From Verrucomicrobia bacterium GWF2_51_19 (GTDB taxonomy: Bacteria; Verrucomicrobiota; Verrucomicrobiia; Opitutales; UBA12508), in assembly GCA_001831095.1 (NCBI GenBank), contig MIDP01000005.1, positions 30,514 to 94,513 on the forward strand: a DNA stretch of 64,000 bases, given 5' to 3'. Position 1 is the first letter of the stretch, and each line of letters begins with the position of its first letter. The translations under genes and the position numbers were made by a program. Below the pieces are notes generated by a model. The model saw nothing but the letters and a program-made list of their open reading frames with translations, was not told the DNA's origin and did not search any database. This document shows positions 12,739 to 48,354 of the stretch, piece by piece.

Positions 12739-12861
12739 CCTGAATCAAAATAGCGCCAAAATGTGTTTTTCGCTCCGCCGCCTGGCTCACGTACTTCTAT
12801 GTACGCTACGCCAGGTCGTGCTCGCGCAAAGCCCCATTTTTGCATCTATTTTGTCTTCAGG
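12739..12861 (-). repeat. Type-C element (123 bp)
   Basis: CCTGAATCAAAATAGCGCCAAAATGTGTTTTTCGCTCCGCCGCCTGGCTCACGTACTTCTATGTACGCTACGCCAGGTCGTGCTCGCGCAAAGCCCCATTTTTGCATCTATTTTGTCTTCAGG. The core is A-like, but the stem is CTGGC/GCCAG instead of CTGCC/GGCAG. Confidence 0.85.
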
Positions 12862-12896
12862 ATAGCGTTCTATTTTTCACTTTTCGGCTGTTTTTA

Positions 12897-12949
12897 AAAC
12901 CATTGTAAAATGACTGCGACATTCTCGCTGTTCATTTTTTAACGATCTT
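12897..12949 (+). repeat. Type-B mini derivative (53 bp)
   Basis: AAACCATTGTAAAATGACTGCGACATTCTCGCTGTTCATTTTTTAACGATCTT. Termini plus a stub of the left arm. Confidence 0.6.
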
Positions 12950-12973
12950 TTTTTGTGTAAGTTATTAGTTTAT

Positions 12974-13097
12974 AAAGAACTATGGAAAATGCGCCTATAG
13001 CCAGGCCCGAGGAGTAAGGGCGACAGGAGCGTACGTTGGTACGTGACTTAGCCCGAACGACGAGAACGCCGCTAGAGGACATTTTACATAGTTCTTT
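12974..13097 (-). repeat. Type-B element, full length, inverted orientation
   Basis: AAAGAACTATGGAAAATGCGCCTATAGCCAGGCCCGAGGAGTAAGGGCGACAGGAGCGTACGTTGGTACGTGACTTAGCCCGAACGACGAGAACGCCGCTAGAGGACATTTTACATAGTTCTTT. The terminal TTA is the rplW stop. Confidence 0.9.
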
Positions 13098-13386
13098 ATA
13101 CGATTTCGATTTTGTCTCCGGACTTAAGCGTAACAATCGCGAACTTGCGGTTCACGCGTCTATCAAGCTTTCCACGGGCTGTACGACTGCGTTTGCGTTT
13201 TCCTGCTCTATTGAGAATGTTAACCCCCTCAACGGTGACATTGAATTTCTTTGCCACCGCATGGCTCACTTCCAAACGGTTCGCTGAAGGGTAGACTTCA
13301 AACACGTATTGATTGGAATTGGCAGACAAGAGGCCCGCTTTTTCCGTCACACGCGTTGCTTTTAAAACTTTTTCCAGTGCTAACAT
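13096..13386 (-). CDS. rplW: 50S ribosomal protein L23
   Basis: ORF 13096..13476 trimmed to M31 (MLALEKVLKATRVTEKA...), which has AGGAG 7 nt upstream and does not overlap rplD. 96 aa. Confidence 0.9.
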   Translation of the reverse strand: MLALEKVLKATRVTEKAGLLSANSNQYVFEVYPSANRLEVSHAVAKKFNVTVEGVNILNRAGKRKRSRTARGKLDRRVNRKFAIVTLKSGDKIEIV

Positions 13387-13397
13387 ATCGGTTTCTC

Positions 13398-14021
13398 CTA
13401 CAATTGGGCACGAGTTAAGACGCGTTCGAGTGCATTTTCGCTCATGATGATCGCGTCGTAGCGGATGAGATCCCACGGGTTCAACGAATCGGCATCGATC
13501 ATGTAGAGACGCTCGATGTTGCGGCCCGCCAATACAACCGTGTCGTCAAACTGTTGATCGACGAGTAAGACCTTTCCCTTGTCAGCAAGACGGCCCAAAA
13601 TGTCATTGAACAGACGTGTCTTGCCCTCGGAAATGGCAAATTTTTCGATCAGCGCCAGCTCATTCGCCTGACAGCACTCAAAGAGCGCGCGGCGTAGGGC
13701 GAGTGTCTTGACCTTGCGGTTCATTTTTTGCGTGTAGTCGCGTGGCTTAGGACCAAACACGATACCTCCTCCGCGCCAAAGGGGGCTGCGCTTTTCACCG
13801 TGACGTGCACGGCCCGTGCCCTTTTGACGCCATGGCTTAACACCTGAACCTTTGACGTCTCCGCGATCTTTTGTGCAGGCATTGCCCTGACGCAGATTGC
13901 TCTGGTAGGCGAGAATGACATCCCTCAAGGCCTGGACACCCTTGTCGTCTGTGTAGACGGGAATCCGTACCTCTTTTTCCTGACTCTGTTTAGCGTCCGA
14001 TGTAAATATTTTTAATTTCAT
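13398..14021 (-). CDS. rplD: 50S ribosomal protein L4
   Basis: 207 aa. KPWRQKGTGRARHGEKRSPLWRGGGIVFGPKPRDY. Confidence 0.95.
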   Translation of the reverse strand: MKLKIFTSDAKQSQEKEVRIPVYTDDKGVQALRDVILAYQSNLRQGNACTKDRGDVKGSGVKPWRQKGTGRARHGEKRSPLWRGGGIVFGPKPRDYTQKMNRKVKTLALRRALFECCQANELALIEKFAISEGKTRLFNDILGRLADKGKVLLVDQQFDDTVVLAGRNIERLYMIDADSLNPWDLIRYDAIIMSENALERVLTRAQL

Positions 14022-14037
14022 AGTCTCGGTCTTTCCT

Positions 14038-14688
14038 TTATGCGGTTACCTTCGCCTTTTTTGCATTGCGAACCATGACCAAGCTGCCCTTGTTGCCCGG
14101 AATGCTGCCCTCGACGAGAATAATGTGCTTGTCTTCAAGCACCTTGACTACAGGCAGGTTCTGAACGGTCACCTGGTTCGTTCCCATGTGACCAGGCATC
14201 GGACGATTCTTGATGACGTGACCGGGCCATTGACGGCAACCGAACGATCCACCGCGACGGTGAAACATCGATCCGTGAGAGGCGGGTCCTCCAGAAAAGT
14301 TATGACGTTTCACAACACCTTGGAAGCCACGACCTTTCGTCGCACCAACGACGTCAACCAGCTGACCTTCGGCAAACGACGCAACTGTCAGCTTGTCACC
14401 CAGCTTGTAAGCCGAGGTGTCTTCAACCTGAAATTCCATCAATTCGGCATAGGCCGGGACGTTCGCCTTTTTCAAGTGACCCAGCTCGCCCTTCGACAGC
14501 CGGCTCTCTTTTTGTTCGCGATAGCCCACTTGGACGGCATTGTAGCCCTCCTTTTCTTTCGTCTTTATCTGAGTCACACACGACGGCGTCAACTCAATAA
14601 CCGTAACCGGAACCAGACGATTGGCCTTGTCGTAGACCTGCGTCATTCCGATCTTCTTTCCCAGCAGTCCTAGTTGTTTTTCTTTCAT
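14038..14688 (-). CDS. rplC: 50S ribosomal protein L3
   Basis: 216 aa. LGKKIGMTQVYD...GATKGRGFQGVVKRHNFSGGPASHGS. Confidence 0.95.
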   Translation of the reverse strand: MKEKQLGLLGKKIGMTQVYDKANRLVPVTVIELTPSCVTQIKTKEKEGYNAVQVGYREQKESRLSKGELGHLKKANVPAYAELMEFQVEDTSAYKLGDKLTVASFAEGQLVDVVGATKGRGFQGVVKRHNFSGGPASHGSMFHRRGGSFGCRQWPGHVIKNRPMPGHMGTNQVTVQNLPVVKVLEDKHIILVEGSIPGNKGSLVMVRNAKKAKVTA

Positions 14689-14712
14689 AATCTAAGCGGC
14701 AGATGCCGAACG

Positions 14713-14744
14713 TTGCGCAAAGGCCTATAGCGGCGTTTTCGCGG
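14713..14744 (+). repeat. Possible type-B left-arm remnant
   Basis: TTGCGCAAAGGCCTATAGCGGCGTTTTCGCGG resembles TTGCAAAATGGCCTCTAGCGGCGTTCTCGTCG. No right half is present. Confidence 0.4.
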
Positions 14745-14844
14745 CATTCAGCGTTCTATGTTGTTTTTCTGCATTAGCTGCTGCGCGCAACGCGCAGCGA
14801 ATGTAAAAAGTGGTTTAAAGGGGCACACTTGCATGGCCCCGTTC

Positions 14845-14919
14845 AAAGACCTATCAAAAATGTCGTCAAAGCTTGGCTTTGCGCGAAACGAGCTTTCACG
14901 GTATTTTTCATAGGTCTTT
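14845..14919 (+). repeat. Type-A short form (75 bp, central hairpin deleted)
   Basis: AAAGACCTATCAAAAATGTCGTCAAAGCTTGGCTTTGCGCGA|AACGAGCTTTCACGGTATTTTTCATAGGTCTTTT. Abuts the rpsJ stop. Confidence 0.85.
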
Positions 14920-15233
14920 TATGTATTAATGGTAATATCGATCCCAGCCGGAAGGTTCAACTTCTTGAGCTCGTCGACGGTTTGTGATGTAGGCTCCTGG
15001 ATAATGAGAAACCGGGAGTGTGTACGGAGCTCGAACTGTTCCATGGACTTCTTATTGACGTGCGGGGAACGGTTGACAGTGAATTTCTCGATATCTACAG
15101 GCAAAGGGATGGGACCGGAGACGCGGGCGCCAGAGCGTTTAGCGGTCTCGACGATCTCTTTAGCGGACTGATCGACGACGCGGTAGTCATAGCCCTTGAG
15201 TTTGATACGAATCTTTGGAGTGGTAGTAGCCAT
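14919..15233 (-). CDS. rpsJ: 30S ribosomal protein S10
   Basis: 104 aa. [39 protein letters not shown]. Confidence 0.95.
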
Positions 15234-15251
15234 ATGGATCTTTCTTTAAAA

Positions 15252-17396
15252 TTAGGTACGAGCGGGTGCCCTGGATGATGTTTCGACGATCTTTTGGGCG
15301 ATGCTAGATGGGACGTCACTGAAGCATTCTGGCTCCATGACGTAGGAAGCGCGGCCCTTGCTGAGCGAGCGGACGTCGGTGGCGTATCCGAACATGTTTT
15401 CGAGGGGGACGTGCGCGGTGATATTGACGATCGGGCCCTTGGTTTCCATGCCTTGAATCTGGCCGCGGCGGCGGTTGAGGTCGCCCATGACGTCGCCCTG
15501 GTACATCTCTGGCGTCGCAACCTCCACTTTCATGATAGGTTCGAGCAAGAGTGGTGAGGCTTTCTTCATGGCGTCCTTAAATGCAAAGATACCTGCCATC
15601 TTAAATGCCATTTCAGACGAGTCAACTTCGTGGAAACTGCCGTCGACGATACGCGCGATAAAGTCAACCACGGGGTATCCGGCGACGGTACCGTTGCGGG
15701 CGCCCTCAGTGATACCTTCTTCGATCGGCTTGATGTATTCGCGTGGGACGACACCGCCAACGATCTCGTTGACAATTTCGATGCCCTTGCCTTTTTCGTT
15801 CGGCTCGAGCTTGATAATCGCGTGACCGTACTGACCGCGACCACCGGACTGGCGGATAAACTTGCCTTCGCCGTCGGCGGGCTGGCGGATCGTCTCGCGG
15901 TAAGCGATTTGCGGACGTCCGGCATCGGCCTCGACTTTAAATTCGCGGAACAAACGGTCGCGAATGATTTCGAGGTGCAATTCACCCATACCGGCGATGA
16001 TCGTCTGCCCGGTGTCCTGATTCGACGTTACGCAGAAAGTGGGATCTTCTTCGGCCAAGCGCTGCAAGGCCAGGGAGAGTTTTTCCTGATCGGCCTTGGT
16101 CTTGGGCTCGATCGACATGCTGATAACGGGCTCTGGGAACGTCGGTGGCTCCAGGCGAAAATCGAGTTCGCGAGCACATAAAGTGTCGCCCGTAATGACG
16201 TTTCTAGCACCGATGATCGCGCAGATGTCGCCAGAATAGGCCACATCAATATCAATGCGGTCGTTGGCCTTCATGAGCATGAGGCGGCTGATTCGCTCGG
16301 TCTTGCGCGTGCGTGGGTTGTAGAGGACATCACCCTTTCTCAACGTGCCGGCGTACATTCTAAAGAAAATGAGCTTTCCGACAAATGGGTCCGTGGCCAA
16401 CTTGAAGGCCAAGCCGCACGGGAGGGCACTGTCGTCGGGAGAAACGCCGACGATTTCACCGTCATCCTTGTGGGCCGGCATGGGAGGCAGGTCGAGCGGC
16501 GATGGCAAATAGTTGACAACGCTGTCTAGCAACATTTGCACGCCCTTGTTTTTAAACGCGCTACCGGGAATGACGCCCAAAAACTGCATTGAGAGGGTCG
16601 CTTTACGAATCGCGTGACGCAATTCCTCAATCGTGACGGACACGCCGTCCAAAAACTTTTCAGCCAAGTTGTCGTCGAAGTCGGCAAGTGCCTCTATGAG
16701 AGAATTGCGGTATTCTTTGGTCTGGGCAGCATATTCCGCTGGAATGGCTACTTCGTGGAAGTCCATACCCTTCGGATCGGTTTCGTCGTATATGTAGGCG
16801 ACTTCTTTAACGAGGTCGACGAGGCCCTTAAATTTATCTTCCGCTCCGATGTTGAGGTAGAGCGGGTGAGCATTGCCACCGAGCTTATGGCGGATATCGT
16901 GGACGGCGCCCAAAAAGTCAGCCCCGGTGCGGTCCATCTTGTTGACGAACGCCAACCTCGGCACGTGGTACTTGTCCATCTGGCGCCAAACGGTCTCTGA
17001 TTGCGGTTGAACACCGGCAACGGCGCAAAATACGCCTACGGCGCCATCGAGGACGCGCAGAGAACGCTCCACTTCAGCTGTAAAATCGACGTGACCAGGA
17101 GTGTCGATGATGTTGACGCGTTGCTCGATACCCTTAAACGGGCCCTCTTTTGTCGTCCAACTGCATGAAATCGCCGCTGACGTAATGGTGATGCCGCGCT
17201 CGCGCTCCTGCTCCATCCAGTCGGTCACTGTAGCTCCGTCGTGGACTTCGCCCATCTTGTGAACGACACCCGTGTAAAATAAGATACGCTCGGTGGTCGT
17301 TGTTTTACCGGCGTCGATGTGCGCCGCGATACCGATGTTACGCGTATACTCGAGGGGATTTTTGCGATCCTTGGAATTTTTCGTCGATAGGGCCAT
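15252..17396 (-). CDS. fusA: Elongation factor G
   Basis: 714 aa. [20 protein letters not shown] (G1), DTPGHVDF (G3), NKMD (G4). Confidence 0.95.
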
Positions 17397-17399
17397 AAT

Positions 17400-17873
17400 T
17401 TACCACCTCAAATGCGCAAACGCGCGGTTCGCTTGAGCCATACGGTGCATTTCATCCTTCTTGCGAACGACGTTACCCGTGTTATTGTAGGCATCCACGA
17501 TCTCCTGAGCCAATGCCTCGCTCATGGGAACACCTTTGCGCGAATCCGCTGCACCGATCATCCAACGAAATGCCAAGCTGATCTGACGCTCGTAAGCAAT
17601 TTCCATCGGCACCTGATAAGTCGCACCACCGACGCGGCGGCTCTTGACTTCCAATTTCGGCCGGACGTTTTCGAGTGCACCCAATAAGAGATCGACGAGG
17701 TCGCCCTTCCCGATCTGCTCGCTCACGCGCTCAATGGCGGTGTAAACAATATTTTGCGAGATCGTCTTCTTGCCATCTTTCATGACAACATTGATCAACT
17801 GCCCCACAAGCTTACTTCCATAACGTGGATCGGCGGCAATTTCGCGTTTTTCGGCTCTTCTACGACGTGACAT
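17400..17873 (-). CDS. rpsG: 30S ribosomal protein S7
   Basis: 157 aa. MSRRRRAEKREIAADPRYGS...RKKDEMHRMAQANRAFAHLRW. Confidence 0.95.
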   Translation of the reverse strand: MSRRRRAEKREIAADPRYGSKLVGQLINVVMKDGKKTISQNIVYTAIERVSEQIGKGDLVDLLLGALENVRPKLEVKSRRVGGATYQVPMEIAYERQISLAFRWMIGAADSRKGVPMSEALAQEIVDAYNNTGNVVRKKDEMHRMAQANRAFAHLRW

Positions 17874-17882
17874 AATAATTCC

Positions 17883-18263
17883 TTACTTCTTTGCTTTCGG
17901 CATTTTGACGCCATATTTGGAACGACTGCGACGGCGCTTTTCGACGCCCTGTGAGTCCAACGTTCCGCGGACAATGTGATAACGCACACCGGGAAGGTCT
18001 TTGACGCGACCACCACGGACGAGGACCACACTGTGCTCTTGCAAGTTGTGGCCTTCATCGGGGATGTAGGCAATGACTTCGTAACCGGTTGTCAAACGGA
18101 CCTTAGCTACCTTGCGGATAGCGGAGTTTGGTTTCTTGGGGGTACGCGTGGTCACTTGGACGCACACGCCGCGACGGAAAGGACACGACTTCAAAGCCGG
18201 TGATTTCGACTTTGTGACGACCTTCTTTCTTGGATTTTTTACTAATTGATTGATTGTTGGCAT
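17883..18263 (-). CDS. rpsL: 30S ribosomal protein S12
   Basis: 126 aa. [14 protein letters not shown]...[18 protein letters not shown]...[13 protein letters not shown]. Confidence 0.95.
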
Positions 18264-18378
18264 TGTGATGTTTTTCTAGAAAATGATCTTAAAGTGGCTG
18301 AAAGGTAGGGCATCTCTTCTATTTTGCAAGAAAAAAATGCACTGTATTGCGAAATAGGGAAATACGCAGTATTTTTTA

Positions 18379-18400
18379 AAGACCATTTTGCAGCGGCCTT
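18379..18400 (+). repeat. Type-B micro form (the two termini fused, 22 bp)
   Basis: AAGACCATTTTGCAGCGGCCTT is the left AAGACC joined directly to the right terminus ATTTTGCAGCGGTCTT. Confidence 0.55.
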
Positions 18401-18424
18401 TATTTTTTTATGGTATTTATTCGT

Positions 18425-18552
18425 AAAGACCTATGATAAATGTCGTAAAAGTTTGGCTTTGCGCGAGCACGATCTGCCGTAGCGTACGATGGTACGTGAG
18501 GCAGTCGCGCGGAGCGAAAAACAAGCTTTCACGGCATTTTGCATAGGTCTTT
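18425..18552 (+). repeat. Type-A element, full length (128 bp)
   Basis: TAAAGACCTATGATAAATGTCGTAAAAGTTTGGCTTTGCGCGAGCACGATCTGCCGTAGCGTACGATGGTACGTGAGGCAGTCGCGCGGAGCGAAAAACAAGCTTTCACGGCATTTTGCATAGGTCTTTA. Confidence 0.9.
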
Positions 18553-18583
18553 AAAGTTTTTCCCGCAACTGGACACCCATTAA

Positions 18584-21500
18584 TTACTCCTGTTGTCCCT
18601 CCACGGTTACTGGAGCTGGCTCAGCGATTTCGGTAAAGCCACCCTTGCCGTCGGAGAAGTTGAGCTTCACGTGGCGATAGGTCGACAATCCGGTACCGGC
18701 GGGAATGAGGCGGCCCATGATGACGTTTTCCTTAAAGCCCGTGAGTTTATCGACTTTGCCGAGCGTAGCGGCCTCAGTGAGGACACGGGTAGTCTCTTGG
18801 AAGGAGGCAGCCGAGATAAAGCTTTCCGTTTCCAGAGAAGCTTTGGTGATGCCCAATAGTATAGGTTCACCTTCAGCGGCCTTACCACCTGCCTCGACGA
18901 TACGCTGATTTTCTTCAATAAAGGCGTTGCGATCGATCTGTTCGCCCCAGAAGAAGTCGGTATCACCGGGGTCGGTGACGCGGACCTTGCGCAGCATGCG
19001 GGAGACGATGACCTCGATATGTTTGTCGTTGATGACGACGCCTTGGAGGCGGTAAACCTTTTGAATTTCCGATATCAGGTATTCCTGGACGGCATTGGGG
19101 CCGAGAATATCGAGAATTTCGTGTGGGTCAGCGGCTCCTTCGGTGAGGTTTTGTCCTTTGACGACGAAGTCTCCGGGGTGGACAATGATATGTTTGCCGT
19201 GCGGAATGAGGTGTTCTTCGTGGTCGCCGGTTTCGGAATCGGTGACGACGAGGCGTTTTTTGCCGCGGATGGAGCCAGTCAGAGAGACGATACCGTCAAT
19301 ACGGGCCATTTCAGCGGAATCCTTGGGGCGGCGGGCCTCAAAGAGTTCTGCAACGCGTGGCAGACCGCCGGTGATGTCCTGTGTCTTGGAGGCCGAACGC
19401 GGTGTTTTTGCCAACAGACCGCCGGCAAAGACCTCGTCCTTCTCGTTGACGACCACCTGGGCGCCTGTCGGAATCGAGTAGGTTGCTAGGACCTTACCTG
19501 GCTCCTCGGACTTCTTCCCGGCAAGGATTTCGATCATCGGGTTGAGGTCTTCCTTGTGCTCGACGACAACCGTTGCAATACGACCCGTGGAGTCGTCCAT
19601 CTCGCGCTTGACGGTGACACCCGCTATCATATCTTGGAAGCGAATCACACCTGTTTTTTCAGACAGAATCGGGATATTGTGGGGATCCCACATGGCGAGC
19701 AGTTCACTTTTTTTGATAGTGTCGCCATCTTCAACGGTCAACACGGACCCTGCGACGACTTTAAAGGACTCCAATTCGCGATCTTCGCTGTCCACGACAA
19801 AGACAACACCGGTCTTATTGAGAACGATATTGGCACCGTCGGCCGTCTTGACGAGGCGGAGGCCCTTAAAATGAACCTTGCCGGAGTGGCGGACGCGGAA
19901 TTCGGGTGATTTCAGGACCTGGCTGGCGACACCACCGACGTGGAACGTACGCATAGTCAGCTGCGTTCCAGGCTCACCGATGGACTGTGCTGCAATGATA
20001 CCAATCGAGGTACCGCGCTGAACAATCTTGTTGGTCGACGGGTCCATTCCGTAGGCTTTGGCGGAAATCTGGCTGCGCCGCATGTGGGTCAACGGAGACA
20101 TAATGCGCACGCGCTCGATGCCCAGGGCCTCGATTTTTTCAGCCATCTCAGGCGAAATCATCTCACCGGCCGACACGAGCACCTCTTCCGGGTTCAACGG
20201 ATTCCGGACATTTTCGCTGGAACAACGACCGATAATGCGTTCGGAGAGGCGAACGATTTCCTCATCACCCTCGTAAATGGACTGCTTCCAAACGCCGTCG
20301 CGGTTGCCATCGTCTTCGTCAGCGATGATCGAGTCCATTGCGACGTCGCACAATTTGCGCGTGAGGTAACCAGCGTCCGCCGTCTTGAGGGCGGTGTCGG
20401 CGAGACCTTTACGCGTTCCGTGCGTCGAAATGAAGTACTCTAAGACGGACAGACCTTCGCGGAAGGACGACAGAATCGGACGCTCGATGATTTCACCCGA
20501 CGGCGTCGACATCAGACCGCGCGCTCCGCAGAGCTGACGGACCTGTTGACGGTTACCGCGCGCACCCGAGTCCATCATGAGAAAGACAGAGTTGGCATTT
20601 TCAGAGCCGTTGTTTCCCTCGAGCCCCTTAAAGGCTGCCTTCGCGATTTCGTCGGTGGCACTCGTCCAAATATCGACGATCTTGTTGTAGCGCTCCCCGT
20701 GAGTGATAACACCTTTTTTGTACTGGTTCTCAATCTCTTCGAGCTTCTTGCGCGCACGGGCGACGATTTCAGGTTTCTCTGACGGAATGACCATGTCGCC
20801 GATCGAAATAGAGATACCGGCCGTCATGGCGCATTCGAAGCCCTTGGCCTTCAAACGGTCGAGTGTCTTGACGGCCTCCTCGCGGCTGACGACTTTGTAC
20901 ATCTGTAAAATCATCTCGCCGAGCTTGCTCTTCGCAACAGGCACGTTGACAAAGCCCACTTCTTTGGGCCAAAGGTTGTTGAAAATGACTCGGCCAACGG
21001 TCGTCCGAATGACCTTCTTCTTGCCGTTTCCAAAAACCGTCTCGCGACCGAAATCCGGGTTAACAAAGTCAATGACGTCGTGTTTTTTGAGGACTTGTTC
21101 GGCATCGGCGAAGAGCACTTCTTGAACAGAAGCCAAGAGCGGCACCCTTTTCGGCGTCGTCTTGGGCTCGAGTGTCAAATAATAGATGCCCAACACAATG
21201 TCCTGTGACGGCGTCAACACCGGTTTTCCACTCGATGGCGAAAAGATGTTGTTGGACGACATCATGAGCAACTTGCACTCCAAGATGGCCTCAGCCGACA
21301 GCGGCACGTGAACGGCCATTTGGTCACCGTCAAAGTCAGCGTTGAAGGCACCGCAAACCAATGGGTGCAGACGAATCGCGTCACCCTCGATTAGGACAGG
21401 CTCAAAGGCCTGAATCGAGAGACGGTGCAAGGTCGGCGCACGGTTCAACATTACCGGGTGTCCCTTGGTCACCTCTTCCAAAATGTCCCAAACTTCGGGC

Positions 21501-22836: not shown

Positions 22837-22964
22837 AAAGACCAATGAAAAATGCCGTCAAAGCTTGGCTTTGCGCGAGCACGATCTGCCGTAGCGTACG
22901 ATGGTACGTAAGGCAGTCGCGCGGAGCGAAAAACGAGCTTTCACTGCATTTTGCATAGGTCTTT
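22837..22964 (+). repeat. Type-A element, full length (128 bp)
   Basis: TAAAGACCAATGAAAAATGCCGTCAAAGCTTGGCTTTGCGCGAGCACGATCTGCCGTAGCGTACGATGGTACGTAAGGCAGTCGCGCGGAGCGAAAAACGAGCTTTCACTGCATTTTGCATAGGTCTTTA. The terminal TTA is the rpoB stop codon. Confidence 0.9.
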
Positions 22965-30675: not shown

Positions 30676-30794
30676 GCGACTTTGATCATCAACTAGCGGT
30701 AAATTTTTAATTAACACTAACATGAATCCTTGATTATTACACCTATCGGCTTTTTATATAAGTCTTTATTGTGGATTAAGTTAGATTATGTAAT

Positions 30795-32517: not shown

Positions 32518-34938
32518 ATGCAATCAACACTACTATCGTCGGAAAGCAAATATTTTTGGGGTCTATTTTACCTCTGTTTAGGCGGGCTGATGGGGGCGGC
32601 GTTGTGGAACTTTGATCTATTACAGACCTTGTTTGCGACGACAGCCAAGCATCCAAGCAACATTACTGGGCTCTTGGGAAGCTACGCGGCGTTTTGGAGC
32701 TTTCGTTTCTTTGGATGTGCTGCGTGGATGTTGCCGACCTACATGATCTTTGCATCCTATGCCCTACTCTTCCGAAAGAGCCACACCCTGCGCTTTTGGC
32801 GATACGCGGCCATGTTTGTGACCGTCATCAGCTTGGCGGCGTTGGGCAACCTTTGGCAAAGCTTGTTTTTGAGCGAAAAAGCCAAGGTGTTCCTTTACAG
32901 CAGCGCTTATTCTCAGGGCCTGGGCGGCATCTTGGGCGACATTGCCCTCTATCGCGTCATTGCAAACATTGGCCTGCTCGGCACCTGCGTCCTCTACACT
33001 GTATCTTTTTGCGTATCCCTCGTGGTCTCACTCTCACCGGAAGCCACACCGCAAGCGGCCTTTGCGCGTTTTCTGAAAATGGCAAAAGTCTTTTTAACGC
33101 GAGCCACACGCGTCGCTGGAGCCTTTGGCCGACTTTCGCAGAGAGCGCTATCGGTTTTTTGGCAACAGACACAGGATAAACTCGCCCAAATTCGCGCCAC
33201 GAAACAGTCGGCGCTTCCACCTATAGAAGCTAAACAGCCGATAGAAGCTAAACAGCCGGTGTCTCTCGCGGAAAAGCCCGACAGCGACTATGCGCCACCG
33301 GATTTTCAACGAGCCGCCTCGGAGCTTTCCAAAGCCGTCTCAGAGCACTCAACGCCACTCAAAATGCTTGAAAAGCCGGTTGAGCATGTGCGCATCGAGC
33401 CTCAATCGCTCAAAATTGTCGCCGAAGAGGTCCTGGAAAAGGGCCTGGTGAATCGCCCGCAACGAGGCAATTACCAATTTCCGCCGCTCGACATCCTTAA
33501 GACGGCCCCAGAGTCCTCCAAGCCCAACACCGAAGAGCACGCGCAGACGGCACAGGCGCTCATCGACAAGCTTGAAGAGTTTGGCGTCAGCGTCTTTTTA
33601 AATGAAATCCACACGGGTCCGGTCATCACGCGCTACGAAGTGACGCCGGCAAAGGGTGTCCGCGTTGAAAAGATTGTCAACCTCGATAAAAACATCGCCC
33701 TCGGCCTCAAAGCGCTCTCGGTTCGCATATTGGCGCCGGTTCCAGGCAAGGGCTGCGTCGGCATCGAGTTGCCAAACAAGCGCCCACAGGCCGTCTGCTT
33801 GCGCGACATTTTGGAATCGAAGGCGTGGGCCGAGTCTCAGGCAGAAATTCCCATTGTTTTAGGAAAAGAAGTGACTGGAAAACCCATCGTCGCCGACCTC
33901 ACGCGCATGCCACACCTCCTCATCGCCGGCTCCACGGGCTCCGGCAAGACGGTCTGCATCAACACGATCATCGCCTCTCTGCTCTACCACTCGAGCCCAG
34001 AAGACCTCCGCTTTATCATGGTCGACCCGAAAATCGTCGAAATGAAGGTTTTCAACGACCTCCCACACATGCTCGTCCCCGTCGTCACGGATCCCAAAAA
34101 AGTACCAGGCGCGCTCAAATGGCTGATCTCGGAGATGGAACACCGCTATCAGATCTTTGCCCAAGTCGGCGCACGCAACATCGCCAGTTTCAATGCAAAG
34201 CTCAGCGAAAAGAGCAGCACGGCTGAAAAGATCGACCTCTCCCCCGAGGAACGCACGGCCCTCCGCGAGTTCGACACCGAAAAGGTCTCCGTTCCGCGCG
34301 AAAAGCTGCCTTACATCGTCTGCGTCATCGACGAGCTGGCTGACCTCATGATGGTTGCCCCGGCGGACGTCGAGTCGTCGATCACCCGACTCGCACAGCT
34401 GGCGCGAGCGGCCGGCATTCACCTCATCATCGCGACGCAACGGCCCTCCGTCAACGTCATTACTGGTGTAATCAAGGCAAACCTGCCAAGCCGTATCGCC
34501 TTTAAAGTCGCATCAAAAGTCGACAGCCGAACCATTCTCGACGGCATGGGCGCTGAAAACCTCATCGGCCGCGGTGACATGCTCTTCGTTCCACCAGGAG
34601 CCTCAGACCTCATTCGCGCGCAGGGAGCCTTTGTCTCCGATGAAGAAATCACAGCTATCGTCGAGGCCCTCAAGGTCAACGGCGCTCCACAATTTGTCGC
34701 AGAAATCCAAGATCACATCGAGTCTGAGTCTGGTGAAGACGGCCCCACTCTCGATGGTGAATGGGACGACAACCTCATTCCACAGGCACTCGCAGTCCTC
34801 AGATCCACCGACAAGCCCTCGACTTCTCTGCTACAGCGCCGCCTCAAGATCGGTTACAACCGCGCCGCCCGTATCATGGAAACCCTCCAGGCTGAGGGGC
34901 TGGTTAGCAATATCTCTGAACCTGCCAACCTACAGTAA
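32518..34938 (+). CDS. ftsK: DNA translocase FtsK/SpoIIIE
   Basis: 806 aa with N-terminal TM helices, Walker A LLIAGSTGSGKTV, Walker B YIVCVIDELADL, and C-terminal gamma winged helix (TSLLQRRLKIGYNRAARIMETLQAEGLV). Confidence 0.93.
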   Translation: MQSTLLSSESKYFWGLFYLCLGGLMGAALWNFDLLQTLFATTAKHPSNITGLLGSYAAFWSFRFFGCAAWMLPTYMIFASYALLFRKSHTLRFWRYAAMFVTVISLAALGNLWQSLFLSEKAKVFLYSSAYSQGLGGILGDIALYRVIANIGLLGTCVLYTVSFCVSLVVSLSPEATPQAAFARFLKMAKVFLTRATRVAGAFGRLSQRALSVFWQQTQDKLAQIRATKQSALPPIEAKQPIEAKQPVSLAEKPDSDYAPPDFQRAASELSKAVSEHSTPLKMLEKPVEHVRIEPQSLKIVAEEVLEKGLVNRPQRGNYQFPPLDILKTAPESSKPNTEEHAQTAQALIDKLEEFGVSVFLNEIHTGPVITRYEVTPAKGVRVEKIVNLDKNIALGLKALSVRILAPVPGKGCVGIELPNKRPQAVCLRDILESKAWAESQAEIPIVLGKEVTGKPIVADLTRMPHLLIAGSTGSGKTVCINTIIASLLYHSSPEDLRFIMVDPKIVEMKVFNDLPHMLVPVVTDPKKVPGALKWLISEMEHRYQIFAQVGARNIASFNAKLSEKSSTAEKIDLSPEERTALREFDTEKVSVPREKLPYIVCVIDELADLMMVAPADVESSITRLAQLARAAGIHLIIATQRPSVNVITGVIKANLPSRIAFKVASKVDSRTILDGMGAENLIGRGDMLFVPPGASDLIRAQGAFVSDEEITAIVEALKVNGAPQFVAEIQDHIESESGEDGPTLDGEWDDNLIPQALAVLRSTDKPSTSLLQRRLKIGYNRAARIMETLQAEGLVSNISEPANLQ
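33223..33258 (+). repeat. 18-bp tandem duplication inside the ftsK linker
   Basis: ATAGAAGCTAAACAGCCG x2, encoding PIEAKQ PIEAKQ. Confidence 0.8.
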
Positions 34939-35062
34939 AGACGGATCAAAATAGCGCAAAAATGCGTTTCGCGCTCCGCCGACTGGCTTACGTACCATCG
35001 TACGCTACGCCAGATCGTACTCGCGCAAAGCCACATTTTTGCATCTATTTTGATCCGTCTTT
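34937..35062 (-). repeat. Type-C element (126 bp)
   Basis: AAAGACGGATCAAAATAGCGCAAAAATGCGTTTCGCGCTCCGCCGACTGGCTTACGTACCATCGTACGCTACGCCAGATCGTACTCGCGCAAAGCCACATTTTTGCATCTATTTTGATCCGTCTTT. Its left terminus overlaps the ftsK TAA. Confidence 0.9.
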
Positions 35063-35085: not shown

Positions 35086-35160
35086 AAGACCGATGCAAAA
35101 TGGCTCTAGAGCAAGGCCCGAGGAGCGAGGGCGACAGGAGCGTACGTTGGTACGTGACTT
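35086..35160 (-). repeat. Type-B element, truncated (one terminus plus half of core)
   Basis: AAGACCGATGCAAAATGGCTCTAGAGCAAGGCCCGAGGAGCGAGGGCGACAGGAGCGTACGTTGGTACGTGACTT, after which the similarity ends. Confidence 0.8.
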
Positions 35161-35252: not shown

Positions 35253-35381
35253 AAGGCCGATGTAAAAATGGATGCAAAAATGTGGCTTTGCGCGAGTACG
35301 ATCTGGCGTAGCGTACATAGAGGTACGTGAGCCAGTCGGCGGAGCGCGAAACGCATTTTGGCGCCATTTTACATCGGCCTT
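35253..35381 (+). repeat. Type-C element with variant outer termini (129 bp)
   Basis: AAGGCCGATGTAAAAATGGATGCAAAAATGTGGCTTTGCGCGAGTACGATCTGGCGTAGCGTACATAGAGGTACGTGAGCCAGTCGGCGGAGCGCGAAACGCATTTTGGCGCCATTTTACATCGGCCTT. Abuts the glgA stop. Confidence 0.85.
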
Positions 35382-36857
35382 TTACAGCGGTCTTTTAGCT
35401 GATATAGCCCAGTTGTAAATGTCGTTGTAATGCAGGGCTGATGTTTTCCAAGAAAAGTCTTTTTCCATGCACGTCTTGCGCATTTTCAAAAAGTGCTGTG
35501 GGCGGTCATAATAGGTAGAACAGGCCCAGCCTATTGAATAATAAAGACCATGACAACTGGCCTCTTCGAAGCGAAACCCGGTTCCAGAGCCGTCTGATTC
35601 GTTGTATTGATCAATGGTGTTGACTAGTCCGCCAGTCGAACGAGCCACAGGAACCGTTCCGTAGCGCATCGAATACATCTGATTGAGACCACAGGGCTCA
35701 AAGCGACTGGGCATCACAAAGAAATCAGAACCCGCCTCCATGAGGTGCGACAGGGCCTTATCGTAACCGATATAGACACCCACTTTGCCCGGATAGCGAT
35801 TGCAGAGGTCGGAGAGGTACCACTCGATGTGGTGTTCGCCAGAACCGAGCACGAGAACCTGAATCTTCATTTCAGACAACAGCCCCGGAATGATGTCGGC
35901 CAACAAGTCGATACCCTTTTGCCAATAGAGACGTGCAATGGCACAGAAAATGGGGATATGGGGGTCGACTTCGAGCCCAAAACGCCGCTGTAGGGCCTCT
36001 TTGCAGGCCGCTTTTCCAGAAAAGTCTCGAGTTGAGTAGTTGGCGGGGAGGTAGGGATCCGTCTCCGGATTCCAGCCCTGGGTGTCGATGCCGTTGAGCA
36101 CGCCAATGAGGTCGGCGCCACGAAAGTTTAGGACGGGATCTAGACCGCAACCGAACTCGGCTGTTCGAATTTCCTGAGCGTATTGTGGGCTGACGGTCGT
36201 GATTTTGTTGGCGTGATAGAGGCCTCCCTTGAGAAAATTCACGCATCCAAGGGACTCGAGGCTGTCGCTTCGGAACTCCGTTTGATGCAGTCCAGCGAAG
36301 TCCAAAATGCCCTTTTCGAAGATGCCCTGATGCTGTAAGTTGTGAATAGTGACAACGCTAGCGGTATTCTTTAAGGCCGTTTCGCGCTCGGTCGTGTTTA
36401 AGAAAACAGGAACTAGGCCGGTTGTCCAGTCGTGACAATGCATGATGTCCGGGTACCACTTAATGAAATGGCAGAGGTCGAGGGCCGCCCGACTCAAAAA
36501 GGCAAAGCGCTCATTGTTGTCGCCATGACTTCCCCATGGACCCGTATAGATCTCGTGACGCTGAAAGTACTTGTTGTATTCTAGGCAATAGATTTTGACA
36601 TTCTCGCTGCCAGGATAGCCGGTTTCCCAAACACGGCAAAAGGCTTCACCAGCCAAATTGACAATCATAGGGCCCTCTTTGGCTACCCAATCCTCATCCG
36701 GCGACATAAATCCGTAAAGGGGCATCACAACCCTCACATCTAACCCGTTTTGCCCCAGCGCCTTAGTGAGCGAACCAACCGCATCGCCCAATCCCCCAAC
36801 AGACGCAAAAGGAGCCAATTCCGGCGTCACCATCAAGACCTTTAATGTGCTTGTCAT
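35382..36857 (-). CDS. glgA: Glycogen synthase (ADP-glucose type)
   Basis: ORF 35382..36929 trimmed to M25 (MTSTLKVLMVTPELAPFASVGGLGDAVGSL...), the typical GlgA N-terminus. 491 aa. The last codons KRPL-stop are encoded by a repeat-terminus-like AAAGACCGCTGTAA. Confidence 0.88.
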   Translation of the reverse strand: MTSTLKVLMVTPELAPFASVGGLGDAVGSLTKALGQNGLDVRVVMPLYGFMSPDEDWVAKEGPMIVNLAGEAFCRVWETGYPGSENVKIYCLEYNKYFQRHEIYTGPWGSHGDNNERFAFLSRAALDLCHFIKWYPDIMHCHDWTTGLVPVFLNTTERETALKNTASVVTIHNLQHQGIFEKGILDFAGLHQTEFRSDSLESLGCVNFLKGGLYHANKITTVSPQYAQEIRTAEFGCGLDPVLNFRGADLIGVLNGIDTQGWNPETDPYLPANYSTRDFSGKAACKEALQRRFGLEVDPHIPIFCAIARLYWQKGIDLLADIIPGLLSEMKIQVLVLGSGEHHIEWYLSDLCNRYPGKVGVYIGYDKALSHLMEAGSDFFVMPSRFEPCGLNQMYSMRYGTVPVARSTGGLVNTIDQYNESDGSGTGFRFEEASCHGLYYSIGWACSTYYDRPQHFLKMRKTCMEKDFSWKTSALHYNDIYNWAISAKRPL

Positions 36858-36919
36858 CGACTCTAAAAAAAGAGTTTTTTCAAAAAGGTCAAAGTGATTC
36901 ACGCTTTTTCGTGTACCAA

Positions 36920-36935
36920 CCTCAATCATTAGCGA
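36920..36935 (-). promoter_or_regulatory. 16-nt motif TCGCTAATGATTGAGG 62 nt upstream of glgA, right half of a TTAGCGA-N-TCGCTAA palindrome
   Basis: It matches 38108..38123 upstream of glmS exactly, in the same orientation and at a similar distance relative to each ATG. It is followed after 17-18 nt by TGAAT in both cases. Confidence 0.45.
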
Positions 36936-44666: not shown

Positions 44667-44697
44667 CAACAGCCTCTCGTTCATTAACAACATTGTC

Positions 44698-47055
44698 ATG
44701 AATAATATCAACGGGAATTTAGGCCGACCGCCAAACCAGCCAAACCAAATTGATAGGCAAAACTTAAGGCAAACTGTTGATCAATTTATGATTGATCTGT
44801 CTGTTAAAGTGCAGCGCGACATTCAAAGTCGAAAAGCAATGTCCGTCGAAGGGCTCGACGTCGAAAGTTCACGCGAAACCCACAGACAACTTGTGGACAT
44901 TCTCGCTCAAAAATCGGTTGGCCAACTAAACGACTTTATTCGCGAACACCCAATTGCCATTTTAAACAAGACAGAAAACGACTTCTTTCTGGATCCGTTT
45001 GTCGTCATCGACGAATACATCCCAAACATTCATATAGATGATAGCCCATTGTGCGTCGCCGTTCAAAATGGTGATTGGAACTCGATCCTCTACCTGTTAA
45101 TCAAACATGTCGACATCAATGCCTGTGGGCGATTCGGAACCCCCTTACGTTACGCAGCTGCAGTTGGCAATGTCGAGATTATGAAGCTTTTAATCAAGGA
45201 AGGAGCCGATGTCAATTTCTTGCCTGAGTTTGTAAATGGAGAACACACGCCTCTTTTTGCTGCAGTTGTAAATAAGAAATACGACACGTTAGAGTATTTG
45301 TTGTCACTTCCAATCATAGATATGGATGGTCCACACGGTATTGTCGATATACCGCAAGAAGACGGCAGTAGTGTTTCACTGGATTCGCCATTAGTCGCCT
45401 CTGTTTTATTGCGCGACGAAAAGGCTTTTGAGCGGCTATTGCGGGCTGGATTCAATGTTAACAAAATCGACGAACAGTTAGATAATAGCCCCATGGAATT
45501 GATAGTAGACTTAAAGTTAAAAACATTTTTGGCTTATGTCTTCAATGTCGCTAAGCCCCAAACCAAGATAGAGGATGCTATAATTGCGTGGCAGGCAATC
45601 CATCGGTCAGAAACAGGCTACAATAAAGGCACTATGGGCGATGAATCCGACTATATATCTTTAATCCAATACCTTTGGACTGGAAATTTTTCTTATCATG
45701 AATCTTCATATAAATTTGCAGAACTGTCAGAGAAAGATTCCTTTTTGTTTCTAGGAGACCGCATCTCAATCGGAGAAAACGGCAATCGCTATTACAATAA
45801 GTATTTCGCAAACATTGATACCTGGGAAATTATCGCAAATACTGTCGGCTTGGGAAATGAAAGAGTCATTCAAGAACCTATATGGATAAAAAATTACCAC
45901 CCAGAGAAAGATATTAATGAACAAGCATTTTGGCTTAAAACAGCCTACGATTGGAAGCGAAAAAAACATGAACTCCCACGTTTTCTCTTCTCTCTTTTAG
46001 AGACCAATGAACGTCAAGAACACGATGTCTTTTCTGTCGCATCTTTTTTTGATCAACTAGACGCCTTGCTGTTTTCTTTTCGCACTTATTTTGGAGTGGA
46101 AAAATTCTTTTCACTCTCCTCTCAAAATGCTTTTGATCAACTACTTTTGCGTCATTTATCATCATTAACGCTAGACAAAACTCCACTAATAGAAAAGGCC
46201 ATGCTAGGAGGCCATGAACCACTCGCGATGCTGTGCGCGAAAGCTACAGTGACTGGCAATACGAAATTATCTTCTGGGCAAACATATATCGAATATGCGG
46301 CCTCTCAAGGCTTATTTTATCTCGTAGAATACTTTTTAGATAAAGGAACTTCTGTTTCTCAAGCCAGCGACATGCTTATTGGCTCGGATTGGGGTGCTCC
46401 CAATTTTCTGATTGGGTTGATTGAAGCTAAGACACATCCATTTACTCCAGACTCAGTTTTGCAACAGAGACTGAGTGAGCGTACGCGATTTCTGTATGAG
46501 TTTGAAACCTTTTTAACAGAGGTCAAAGACAGTAATGATTCCGCCATTCTTGAACAATGTCAGGCATTTCTCAATCAATCAAAGGACTATTTTTCGACAC
46601 GCATAAAGCCCAATAAAGACTTAGATTCAGCAACAAAAACGCCCTGTGAAATCATGATTCAACAAAAACGAGATGAAATTACAGACCGTGGAGATAAACT
46701 GTTGGTTGCGATTCTCTCCAATAACATCAATGATTTTAAAGAAATCCTTTCTTCATTCACGCGCAGTATCTACCACTATAAGACATTCAAAAAGTTAAAT
46801 CATGTTAAAAAAATAGTTGATGTCGATCAGGACAGTATAGATGAATTTTACAAAACCCTCGAAATGCATTACGGTATTCGTCCAATCGAGCAAGAAGAAA
46901 TCGGCAACAGCTTGAACTCTCTTCTGGATTCAAAAATCGAGCTCGACGACGAAAATTTTGAAAAGATTAAAGAGCTCTACCATAGAGCAAAAATGTCAAA
47001 ATGTGTTGACCGCGAAAAAAAAGATCTAAATCTTAAAAAAATTAAGAAAATTTGA
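44698..47055 (+). CDS. Ankyrin-repeat protein, ~785 aa, A+T-rich gene
   Basis: ORF 44647..47055 (TTG) trimmed to the first ATG, MNNINGNLGRPPNQ. ANK repeats are visible (SPLCVAVQNGDWNSILYLLIKHVDINA, GTPLRYAAAVGNVEIMKLLIKEGADVN, HTPLFAAVVNKKYDTLEYLL). The rest has no family I recognise. Confidence 0.75.
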   Translation: MNNINGNLGRPPNQPNQIDRQNLRQTVDQFMIDLSVKVQRDIQSRKAMSVEGLDVESSRETHRQLVDILAQKSVGQLNDFIREHPIAILNKTENDFFLDPFVVIDEYIPNIHIDDSPLCVAVQNGDWNSILYLLIKHVDINACGRFGTPLRYAAAVGNVEIMKLLIKEGADVNFLPEFVNGEHTPLFAAVVNKKYDTLEYLLSLPIIDMDGPHGIVDIPQEDGSSVSLDSPLVASVLLRDEKAFERLLRAGFNVNKIDEQLDNSPMELIVDLKLKTFLAYVFNVAKPQTKIEDAIIAWQAIHRSETGYNKGTMGDESDYISLIQYLWTGNFSYHESSYKFAELSEKDSFLFLGDRISIGENGNRYYNKYFANIDTWEIIANTVGLGNERVIQEPIWIKNYHPEKDINEQAFWLKTAYDWKRKKHELPRFLFSLLETNERQEHDVFSVASFFDQLDALLFSFRTYFGVEKFFSLSSQNAFDQLLLRHLSSLTLDKTPLIEKAMLGGHEPLAMLCAKATVTGNTKLSSGQTYIEYAASQGLFYLVEYFLDKGTSVSQASDMLIGSDWGAPNFLIGLIEAKTHPFTPDSVLQQRLSERTRFLYEFETFLTEVKDSNDSAILEQCQAFLNQSKDYFSTRIKPNKDLDSATKTPCEIMIQQKRDEITDRGDKLLVAILSNNINDFKEILSSFTRSIYHYKTFKKLNHVKKIVDVDQDSIDEFYKTLEMHYGIRPIEQEEIGNSLNSLLDSKIELDDENFEKIKELYHRAKMSKCVDREKKDLNLKKIKKI

Positions 47056-47061
47056 TAAACG

Positions 47062-48354
47062 ATGGCATGTAAAAAGACAGCAATCTTGGGCAACGGTTGC
47101 ACGGGCAAGGCAGTCGCGACGTGGCTCTCCGAAAGAGGAAGCGATTTTGATGTTTTCGACGAAAATGGCCGCAACGATTTTGCCGAAGTCGCCAAAGATT
47201 TCGACACCGTTGTCTGCAGTCCAGGATTTCGCAAAACACACCCATGGCGATCGGCTGCCGAGGCGGCTGGCTGTCGGTGTTTGGGGGAATTGGAGCTTGC
47301 CAGGCCACATTGGAAGGGCAAAGTCATTGCAGTCACCGGCACAAACGGCAAGACATCGCTGGTCGAGTTTTTGGCCTTTGCATTGAAGCGGGCTGGCATC
47401 GACGCGCACGCCGTGGGCAATAACGGCATCCCCTTTATCGGCATTTGCGAGACGGGTACAGCCAACTCCATCGCCGTCTGCGAGGTCAGCTCGTTTCAGT
47501 CCGAGAGCATGACCGCATTCCCAATCGACATCCTCTTGTGGACGAATTTTGCCGAAGACCACATCAAGTACCACGGAAGCCTCGAGGCGTACCTTGAGGC
47601 CAAACGCCGCCTCGTTGACTTTGCCAAAGTCGTTTTTATAGGCGATGACATAACTCGCGAGTCCTTGTATATTCATGAATTGCAAAATGTAAGACATGGG
47701 CAAAATGGCTCTATAGCAAGGCCCGAGGAGCGAGGGCGACAGGAGCCTACTGACGTAGGTGACTTAGCCCGAACGACGAGAACGCAGCTAGAGAACATTT
47801 TGACCATGTCTTATCCTAAGGATTTTTGGACAGATTTCCGCAAAGAAACCTTCGACCTGGCTTGGAACGCTTGGCAGGAGTTGGGCCTGCCATTGGCAAC
47901 TCTGATGGAGGCGGGTGAGGCTTTCACTTTTCCGCCTTTCCGACTCGAGGAGCACAACGTTCATGGCGTACGTATTTTCAACGACTCCAAGGCCACCAAC
48001 TTCGACGCCCTTATAGCTGCCCTGCGCAACCTCGACGGCAGTTATTGGATCGGCGGCGGTTACGACAAGGGTGAAGATTTGGCCAATATCGCCCCGTTAC
48101 TGAATCAAAAAGTGAAAAAGGCCTACTTGGTCGGCGACACCGCTGAAAAAATTGCGGCCGTCCTCGACGTTCCCAGCGTCGTTTTGAGCAGGCTGGAGAT
48201 CGCCATCGAAGCCGCTCTGGCAGACGCAAAGCCAGGTGAAACCATCCTTTTTAGCCCCGGTTACCCAAGCTTTGACCAATTCCAAAATTTCGAAGAACGC
48301 GGAAGATTTTTCAATAAATGTTTGAATAGTTGCCGTTTTGTGCTTAATAAATAG
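47062..48354 (+). CDS. murD: UDP-N-acetylmuramoylalanine--D-glutamate ligase carrying an in-frame repeat insertion
   Basis: 430 aa. VIAVTGTNGKTS P-loop and NDSKATN motif. Residues ~208-250 ([43 protein letters not shown]) are encoded by a type-B element. Confidence 0.88.
   Translation: MACKKTAILGNGCTGKAVATWLSERGSDFDVFDENGRNDFAEVAKDFDTVVCSPGFRKTHPWRSAAEAAGCRCLGELELARPHWKGKVIAVTGTNGKTSLVEFLAFALKRAGIDAHAVGNNGIPFIGICETGTANSIAVCEVSSFQSESMTAFPIDILLWTNFAEDHIKYHGSLEAYLEAKRRLVDFAKVVFIGDDITRESLYIHELQNVRHGQNGSIARPEERGRQEPTDVGDLARTTRTQLENILTMSYPKDFWTDFRKETFDLAWNAWQELGLPLATLMEAGEAFTFPPFRLEEHNVHGVRIFNDSKATNFDALIAALRNLDGSYWIGGGYDKGEDLANIAPLLNQKVKKAYLVGDTAEKIAAVLDVPSVVLSRLEIAIEAALADAKPGETILFSPGYPSFDQFQNFEERGRFFNKCLNSCRFVLNK
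47691..47812 (-). repeat. Type-B element, full length, inside the murD reading frame
   Basis: AAGACATGGGCAAAATGGCTCTATAGCAAGGCCCGAGGAGCGAGGGCGACAGGAGCCTACTGACGTAGGTGACTTAGCCCGAACGACGAGAACGCAGCTAGAGAACATTTTGACCATGTCTT. Flanked by TA on both sides. The ORF stays open through it. Confidence 0.9.

Follow-up and report, generated by a model that had tools for sequence, protein, structure and literature searches.

The stretch of DNA analysed here (64 kb, referred to as the window) comes from the metagenome-assembled genome (MAG) Verrucomicrobia bacterium GWF2_51_19, an uncultured groundwater bacterium. It carries tuf, secE, nusG, rplKAJL, rpoBC, rpsLG and fusA together with other genes, which were called with a codon-usage score trained on long open reading frames (ORFs). 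Distributed over the window are about 35 copies of a non-coding palindromic repeat of 114–127 nt (typically about 125 nt), with additional variants of 73 and 190 nt, at a density of approximately one copy per 2–3 kb. The window agrees with an independent public assembly at 99.985% identity over 20 kb, elements included. An earlier interpretation of the same DNA, made from its letters alone (the sequence-only reading), had pointed to paired changes in the hairpins of these repeats. The compensatory pairing is real, and it is stronger than that reading had it.

Architecture and copies of the repeat family

The ends AAGACC...GGTCTT are common to all types of the repeat, and the full 17-nt inverted ends read AAGACCNNTGNAAAATG ... 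CATTTTNCANNGGTCTT. Three types (A, B and C) have these ends and a central CGTAC hairpin in common and differ in the sequence between them; type C has a type A-like core with other flanks. The single-strand fold of each copy is an imperfect hairpin of about 50 bp, with predicted folding energies of −46 to −62 kcal/mol (z-scores of −6.1 to −8.4). The 73-nt forms result from an internal deletion and the 190-nt forms contain an extra palindromic insert. In the long type A variants this second insert (GGATAC...GTATCC, AGTGGATGC..., GGGGGCCGCTGCCCCC) is unrelated to the central hairpin that it replaces, and a fragment at 40331–40377 is a stand-alone relative of it. Type B contains purine-rich internal segments (alignment columns ~42–60 and 95–112) which have a direct-repeat likeness (GCCCGAGGAGCGAGGGCG / GCCCGAACGACGAGAACG) and are unable to pair.

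The type A copies of the window all lie on the forward strand. The copy at 1429–1554 pairs CTGCC with GGCAG in the inner stem, has the central hairpin CGTAC-GATG-GTACG and adjoins the stop codon of the reverse-strand gene at 1554–1928. The copy at 2829–2955 has one G·T wobble in the central stem (CGTAC...GTATG) and, with a 24-nt spacer and the short type B copy at 2732–2804, makes up the entire intergenic region. Further copies are found at 6380–6506, at 8205–8331 (a composite, with a 25-nt spacer and the decayed type B copy at 8064–8179 to its left), at 18426–18551 (downstream of rpoC) and at 22838–22963, between rpoB and rpoC, where the end of the element overlaps the rpoB stop codon. The predicted RNA fold of this last copy reaches −61.7 kcal/mol on the model strand (z = −6.9) and −59.7 kcal/mol in the mRNA sense (z = −8.4). 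The sequence-only reading had all type A copies with an intact central hairpin pairing CTGCC with GGCAG; this holds at 1429, 2829, 8205, 18426 and 22838 and fails at 6380, where the left arm of the inner stem is disturbed (TTCGGCC against GGCAG), the one uncompensated case of the window. Of the two long variants (190 nt), that at 7554–7743 has a nested palindromic insert in place of the central hairpin, with CTGCC still pairing with the adjacent GGCAG, and that at 28275–28464 lies between rplA and rplJ, where a spurious 98-aa gene without a Pfam match is called over it in the public contig. A short type A copy (73 nt; 14846–14918) carries an internal deletion.

The three type C copies, at 12736–12862 (reverse strand), 34937–35061 (reverse strand, directly after the stop codon of an FtsK-like gene at 32518–34938) and 35255–35381 (forward strand, adjoining the stop codon of the reverse-strand gene at 35382–36929), read CTGGC/GCCAG in the inner stem, as had been stated for them.

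The central stem of type B had been described as mostly CGTAC/GTACG with a CCTAC/GTAGG variant, and the window indeed contains nine copies of the former and three of the latter. The stem CGTAC/GTACG is present on the reverse strand at 4926–5039 (loop TGAC in the model orientation), 5701–5822, 9497–9620 (one extra base), 30553–30676 (far end divergent) and 40047–40170 (a divergent copy, the outer arms of which differ in sequence yet are complementary). It is present on the forward strand at 12975–13096 and in the truncated copy at 35086–35160, both with the loop GTTG (CGTAC-GTTG-GTACG), and at 52476–52594 (CGTAC-GCTG-GTACG). The copy at 12975–13096 ends in AAGAAC...GTTCTT and that at 26828–26949 (reverse strand, between rpoB and rplL) in AAGATC...GATCTT, both compensated variants of the usual ends. 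The variant stem occurs on the forward strand as CCTAC-TGAC-GTAGG at 27027–27148 and 47691–47812 and as CCTAC-AACG-GTAGG at 42680–42800, which ends 9 nt before an ATG. On the reverse strand, a decayed copy at 8064–8179 has the central stem CGTAT/GTATG with two G·T wobbles, and a short copy (73 nt; 2732–2804) with an internal deletion stops 4 nt short of the start of the next gene downstream. The type B copy previously placed at 30431 is actually located at about 30553–30676, and the copies at 5701, 35086 (truncated) and 8064 (decayed) had been absent from the list. The pattern CGTAC-N4–6-GTACG has 18 matches in the window, compared with about 0.02 expected from dinucleotide-preserving shuffles, and 17 of them lie in elements; the remaining match, at 23100, is inside rpoB and is unrelated to the repeats. 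The pattern CCTAC-N4–6-GTAGG has three matches (27082, 42734 and 47746), with about 0.03 expected from the same type of shuffle. The loops had been said to vary freely. Several of those counted as different are mutual reverse complements, because the copies lie in both orientations, and in a common orientation GTTG and TGAC dominate.

The copy at 47691–47812 lies in frame inside a murD-like ORF (47062–48354). It is read through without a stop codon, giving about 41 residues, and sits between the Mur ligase middle domain (aa 91–196) and the C-terminal domain (aa 294–399). The protein aligns over its full length with Escherichia coli MurD, with poor alignment across the element.

Searches against known RNA and regulatory signals were negative. 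Against the Rfam 15 covariance models the window yields nothing at the gathering score except two tRNAs, and the region 2700–9700, which contains ten elements, gives no match with an E value of up to 1. A scan of positions 1–20000 for intrinsic terminators returned 22 sites, compared with 25.8 in shuffled sequences, and no element hairpin there is followed by a terminator-like tail; the sole site inside an element is a 6-bp stem at 1450–1464 within the type A copy at 1429–1554. No systematic match to promoters was found, with a single 11/12 match in the copy at 6380 owing to a TTGACA inside type A.

Covariation of the paired arms

To assemble more copies, metagenomes were scanned with a 21-base type A/C pattern carrying N at the covarying position. 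The scan returned 62 loci (560 kb) in three Joint Genome Institute (JGI) metagenome data sets, all of which derive from other genome regions of the organism that supplied the window. Two of the three data sets are mutually redundant at 99.7–100%, and the two independent assemblies that were compared are concordant at 99.9–100%. Profile searches of the total sample of about 620 kb (624 kb) from this one organism, followed by de-duplication by flanking sequence, gave 205 distinct loci, of which 149 are full length (76 A/C and 73 B). A 14-base end motif was also tried as a family probe in a genome collection and was too unspecific: its 119 loci (L001–L119) all arose by chance in unrelated organisms. 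The peptide encoded by type B, searched against a protein database that covers called ORFs only, gave a single match, to an ORF of the same MAG. The family was not seen elsewhere and is apparently lineage-restricted.

For the A/C copies the structure predicted by RNAalifold is a hairpin over the full length of the element. A standard pair is formed in 97.0% of the alignment cells, compared with 85.4% after shuffling, and 273 cells in which both partners have changed are still paired, compared with 86. Double changes affect 17 of the 31 pairs (11.8 in shuffles), and none of 500 shuffles reached the observed values. When the partners are slid by 1–3 columns, only 17–52% of the cells are paired. 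At the inner-stem pair (columns 56/84), 52 copies have C:G, 21 G:C, one U:A and two U·G, and none of the 76 is unpaired. The neighbouring pairs show rarer compensated variants (CGGCC/GGCCG, CTACC/GGTAG and CTGTC/GACAG). Covariation is strongest in the terminal repeats, where 94.7% of the cells are paired, all eight end pairs have double changes and the inner positions vary; examples are a pair with G:C in 36 copies and U:A in 29, and another with A:U in 42, G:C in 14 and G·U in 11. The hairpin is not simply a palindrome. Asymmetric bulges are conserved (for example GTAG opposite TGA), and U·G is present at columns 31/109 in 66 of the 76 copies. Pairing past the element ends is rare (0–2 nt), with one 12-nt exception at L127:180.

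For type B the RNAalifold consensus was poor and the fold of a single reference copy served as the structure, a choice that biases the slid controls in its favour. Standard pairs make up 85.0% of the cells, compared with 77.5% after shuffling, 190 double-change cells are still paired, compared with 62, and again no shuffle out of 500 reached the observed values. Double changes occur at 27 of the 39 pairs. The central helix is 96.6% paired; its variable pair is G:C in 50 copies, C:G in 17, G·U in two and another combination in two, and further compensated variants of the helix are TGCAC/GTGCA and CGCAT/ATGCG. Another pair exchanges A:U (38 copies) for G:C (20 copies) across two G·A mismatches.

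In a few copies the outer arms are wholly unlike the consensus, yet remain complementary at 18–22 of 18–22 positions (L174:4349–4475, L130:10317–10442, L137:10285–10406, L130:10496–10617 and L166:2837–2957). Stepwise compensation is a slow route to such arms, and none of the explanations considered below seems to account for them fully.

The paired states are largely independent of the sequence background. The sequence-only reading had treated CTGGC/GCCAG as a property of type C. In the wider sample it is also found on type A flanks (C:G 33, G:C 7), as well as on type C flanks (C:G 14, G:C 13), and the tie to type C reflected which copies the window happened to sample. Both states of the A/C inner stem occur with every loop type and with every other polymorphic marker. 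On neighbour-joining trees built from columns other than the scored stem pair, the stem state changes 20 times for A/C, compared with 21.7 for random labels, and 19 times for B, compared with 21.1. Recurrent events, or else exchange between copies, lie behind this scatter, and either way the arms were never uncoupled. Uncompensated single changes are rare and mostly wobbles, and the copies do not resolve into two clonal subfamilies. The earlier proposal that the paired changes reflect selection on secondary structure, in the DNA or in the RNA, is therefore supported by the covariation test on the 149 full-length copies.

Orientation, gene boundaries and signatures of mobility

The orientation of the elements follows that of the genes. 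Relative to flanking co-directional genes, A/C copies are antisense in 40 cases and sense in nine (p = 9e-6), whereas B copies are sense in 33 and antisense in eight (p = 1e-4). Inside individual loci the orientation flips with gene direction, which ties it to transcription and not to replication. The placement is equally regular. For A/C, 50 of 59 cases have an element end next to the upstream stop codon or overlapping it, and an ATG lies within 14 nt of the 3′ end of type B in 40 of 70. A Shine–Dalgarno-like 4-mer is present in the 12 nt before the 5′ end of type B in 20 of 70 cases, compared with 9.4% of background intergenic 12-mers. Upstream reading frames often finish inside the A/C element, at a TGA 23 nt or a TAG 18 nt into it (12736–12862, 34937–35061 and many other loci), so that the element provides the last 6–7 codons and the stop codon.

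Composites consisting of an A/C element, a conserved spacer of 25 nt (read along transcription, TGTGAATTAACAACTTACGAAAGGA) and a type B element account for 15 of the 76 A/C copies. In these composites (2732–2955, 7451–7743 and 8064–8331 in the window; L122–L183 in the wider sample) a reversed type A is followed by the spacer and type B, and the whole can fill an intergenic region within an operon. The spacer contains the Shine–Dalgarno-like GAAAGGA and frequently TTAC, and it also flanks solo A and solo B copies. Because the elements lie inside operons, in a fixed orientation and after a stop codon (A/C) or before a start codon (B), their position indicates that they must be co-transcribed with the operon genes.

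Signatures of mobility were sought in the flanks and in the protein-coding genes. Matches of 1–5 nt between the two flanks are not above those of permuted flanks and thus provide no sign of target-site duplication: 2-nt matches number seven for A/C, with 4.0 expected, and four for B, with 2.6 expected, and matches of at least 3 nt are essentially zero. The dinucleotide TA is found at 11 of 31 left ends and nine of 31 right ends. No transposase, no RAYT (Y1 transposase) gene and no insertion sequence with the same ends was found among the ten multi-copy protein families scanned against Pfam (out of 23 found in the 624-kb sample), a screen that did not extend to single-copy genes or to the rest of the genome. 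The Pfam matches of the scanned families were AAA/DUF4143 proteins, ABC ATPases, CheW, CesT and similar proteins. The sampled DNA also encodes a type III secretion ATPase, several CesT-type chaperone paralogues and an ankyrin-repeat protein (55663–56985 and 44647–47055; L125:7693–8220), a combination that hints at a host-associated lifestyle for this verrucomicrobial MAG.

Probable selection on the hairpin and comparison with known systems

Taken together, the data are probably best explained by a set of lineage-specific palindromic repeats whose hairpin fold is under purifying selection, with the mRNA as the preferred level. Double changes that keep the pairing, asymmetric bulges that are conserved and G·U pairs that are fixed argue for selection for a specific hairpin and not for passive inheritance or simple copying of one arm onto the other. 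Under such selection mutations would be filtered: changes that open a stem would be lost, or would be rescued by a complementary change on the other arm, and the loops and fixed bulges would be free or otherwise constrained. The level of this selection, and any function, we infer from the observed covariation, orientation bias, boundary placement and lack of target-site duplication. Since orientation tracks transcription and the copies sit at gene boundaries, the mRNA is the favoured site of the constraint, although selection at this level is a tentative assignment. A 125-nt intercistronic insert might be tolerated only if it is compactly folded, or the mRNA hairpin might contribute to processing, to stability or to start-site geometry. 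Next in likelihood, and perhaps acting as well, would be a need for this hairpin in single-stranded DNA during mobilization.

Several points weigh against this explanation. The shuffle controls ignore the relatedness among copies, and the covariation comes from one organism only, so that in-place compensation at orthologous loci is outside its reach. Ascertainment affects the A/C copies, 62 of 76 of which match the scan pattern that fixed most of the left arm; the right arm of A/C and all B copies are free of this bias. One row of the alignment, L139:95–221, is an assembly chimera of two neighbouring elements (at a contig end; compared with L146:9587–9916), and assembly is thus able to mis-join these repeats. 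With respect to the mRNA in particular, the better-folding strand of A/C is antisense to it (−70.2 compared with −58.9 kcal/mol) in 75 of 76 copies, and on this antisense strand G·T mismatches outnumber A·C by 63 to 26. For type B the better-folding strand is the mRNA (−52.0 compared with −46.5 kcal/mol). As a test of selection on RNA, the wobble and strand asymmetries are therefore in conflict, with type B appearing as predicted and A/C the opposite.

The sequence-only reading had itself named founder effects as the alternative: two or three master copies that differed at both positions of a pair would have passed both on to their descendants, with no constraint on pairing. There are traces of such descent. 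Within the window CTGGC/GCCAG is confined to the three type C copies; in type B, CCTAC is almost restricted to the A:T background of pair 62/90 (15 to 1), and the purine-rich segments show linked changes that have no pairing logic (GACGAGCG on the left with GAGTGAGGAG on the right). The latter make hitch-hiking possible, yet are unable to yield the overall pattern. Founder effects alone fail, since among the 149 copies both states occur on all backgrounds without clustering on the tree and are accompanied by rarer compensated variants, with at least five different Watson–Crick variants in a 5-bp stem. The double changes at more than half of the pairs of both A/C and B, the mainly compensated nature of departures from the commonest pair, and the failure of any shuffle to reach the observed values also speak against passive descent, which we regard as highly improbable. 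Correction without selection would produce double changes in one step, through template switching in quasi-palindromes at replication or through the repair of mismatches in extruded hairpins. The first of these is an established mutational mechanism, and such correction would suit both the C:G to G:C exchange, which needs two transversions with no wobble intermediate (neither C·C nor G·G is seen), and the highly divergent single copies that are still complementary. However, it would be expected to produce perfect palindromes, yet asymmetric bulges, the unpaired purine-rich segments of type B and fixed G·T pairs persist in nearly all copies, and it leaves the orientation bias and the gene-boundary placement unexplained. 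As the source of the pattern it is decidedly unlikely.

A stronger rival is a hairpin that matters in single-stranded DNA only, as the substrate of a structure-specific transposase (HUH/Y1, as for REPIN–RAYT or IS200/IS605). Only intact hairpins would then spawn copies, and compensated variants would spread. The better fold of A/C on the antisense strand and the G·T excess there, which follows the orientation of the element and not that of the mRNA, keep this possibility in play. It would also be consistent with the absence of target-site duplications, with the asymmetry of the elements and their conserved tail or leader of about 25 nt, often with TTAC, and with ends that are variable but paired, suggesting recognition by shape and not by sequence. 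The largest group of type B copies (GTTGAA ends), with 24 CGTAC and one CCTAC, reveals clonal structure and resembles a large near-clonal burst, and compensatory changes are described as common in REPINs (PMC3116915). Against it stand the orientation of the elements, which tracks transcription, and the outcome of the transposase screen of multi-copy proteins described above, with its restriction to these. Moreover, a filter acting at transposition only cannot hold old unique copies paired, and those at L174:4349, L130:10317, L137:10285 and L130:10496 have retained their complementarity. Selection on single-stranded DNA alone thus appears somewhat unlikely.

Selection at the mRNA level could be taken further, in that the repeats might act as genome-wide RNA modules at gene boundaries. 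The A/C hairpin would cap the preceding cistron at its 3′ end, by the stop codon, and type B would lie between the Shine–Dalgarno-like leader (GAAAGGA) and the next start codon, so that only with its hairpin folded would the ribosome-binding site lie at a workable distance from the AUG. A hairpin in the leader of phage T4 gene 38 has this effect on the spacing. This extension is unlikely as it stands. If true, it would account for the orientation being fixed, for the placement and for the strong pairing at the bases of the stems, and the intercistronic regions of essential operons (rpoB–rpoC, rplA–rplJ and the ribosomal protein operons) would be built from parts derived from mobile elements.

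The repeats have features in common with several known systems. Rickettsia palindromic elements (RPE; Ogata et al., 2000) are reportedly palindromic repeats of similar size that can sit in frame inside protein-coding genes, as does the type B copy in the murD-like gene, the one case examined; the great majority of the present copies are intergenic, and the sequences are unrelated. Correia elements (CREE/NEMIS) of Neisseria are likewise very abundant intergenic inverted-repeat elements of about 100–150 bp that are co-transcribed with their neighbours, which for the present family is concluded from position. The ends found here differ in sequence from the characteristic 26-nt Correia inverted repeat, the sequences as a whole are unrelated and TA flanks only a minority of the ends. 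In Neisseria the TA target is duplicated, RNase III binds and cleaves the hairpins, the expression of adjacent genes is altered and promoters can be created (Snyder et al., 2009; PMC2649163).

Miniature inverted-repeat transposable elements (MITEs) such as bcr1 and ERIC/IRU are, like the present family, non-coding elements of about 100–200 bp with terminal inverted repeats that form long stem-loops in RNA, and the multi-copy nature, the size below 300–400 bp and the lack of own coding capacity are also shared. Unlike here, MITEs are flanked by direct target-site duplications, and a related insertion sequence was not found among the multi-copy families scanned. The bcr1 repeats of the Bacillus cereus group are transcribed, show base-pair compensatory changes and have a 5-bp target duplication (Delihas, 2011; PMC3184786); compensatory changes are also documented for Borrelia stem-loops (PMC3184786). 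The lack of target-site duplication is shared with the REPINs of Pseudomonas and Enterobacteria, extragenic hairpins formed by REP doublets and mobilized by RAYT, in which compensatory changes are common (Bertels & Rainey, 2011; PMC3116915). REPINs too are short non-coding extragenic repeats that form a long hairpin in single-stranded DNA or mRNA, and they have an asymmetric tail, proposed for REPINs to be in the transposition intermediate. The present repeats differ from them in their unrelated sequence, in having conserved shared ends in place of two REP motifs, in their strong orientation with respect to genes and their fixed location at stop or start codons, and in that no RAYT gene was found among the multi-copy proteins examined in the sampled DNA. 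Because the target duplication of MITEs is missing and no RAYT was seen among the proteins examined, the family is filed as a palindromic intergenic repeat.

Hairpin-preserving compensatory changes in bacterial repeats are thus already known from REPINs, bcr1 and Borrelia, and the phenomenon itself is not new. What is new is an undescribed repeat family that seems limited to one lineage of an uncultured bacterium of the Planctomycetes–Verrucomicrobia–Chlamydiae group, and its high density, with copies occupying the intergenic regions of essential operons. If the placement is functional, the family would be a clear case of repeat-derived RNA structure organizing polycistronic expression; if not, it would still offer good natural data with which to tell selection on structure apart from mutagenesis by palindrome correction. 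Set beside the known systems, the mix of features is unusual: inverted ends shared by all types occur without target duplication, these ends are variable yet complementary, and two types lie in opposite but fixed orientations at stop and at start codons.

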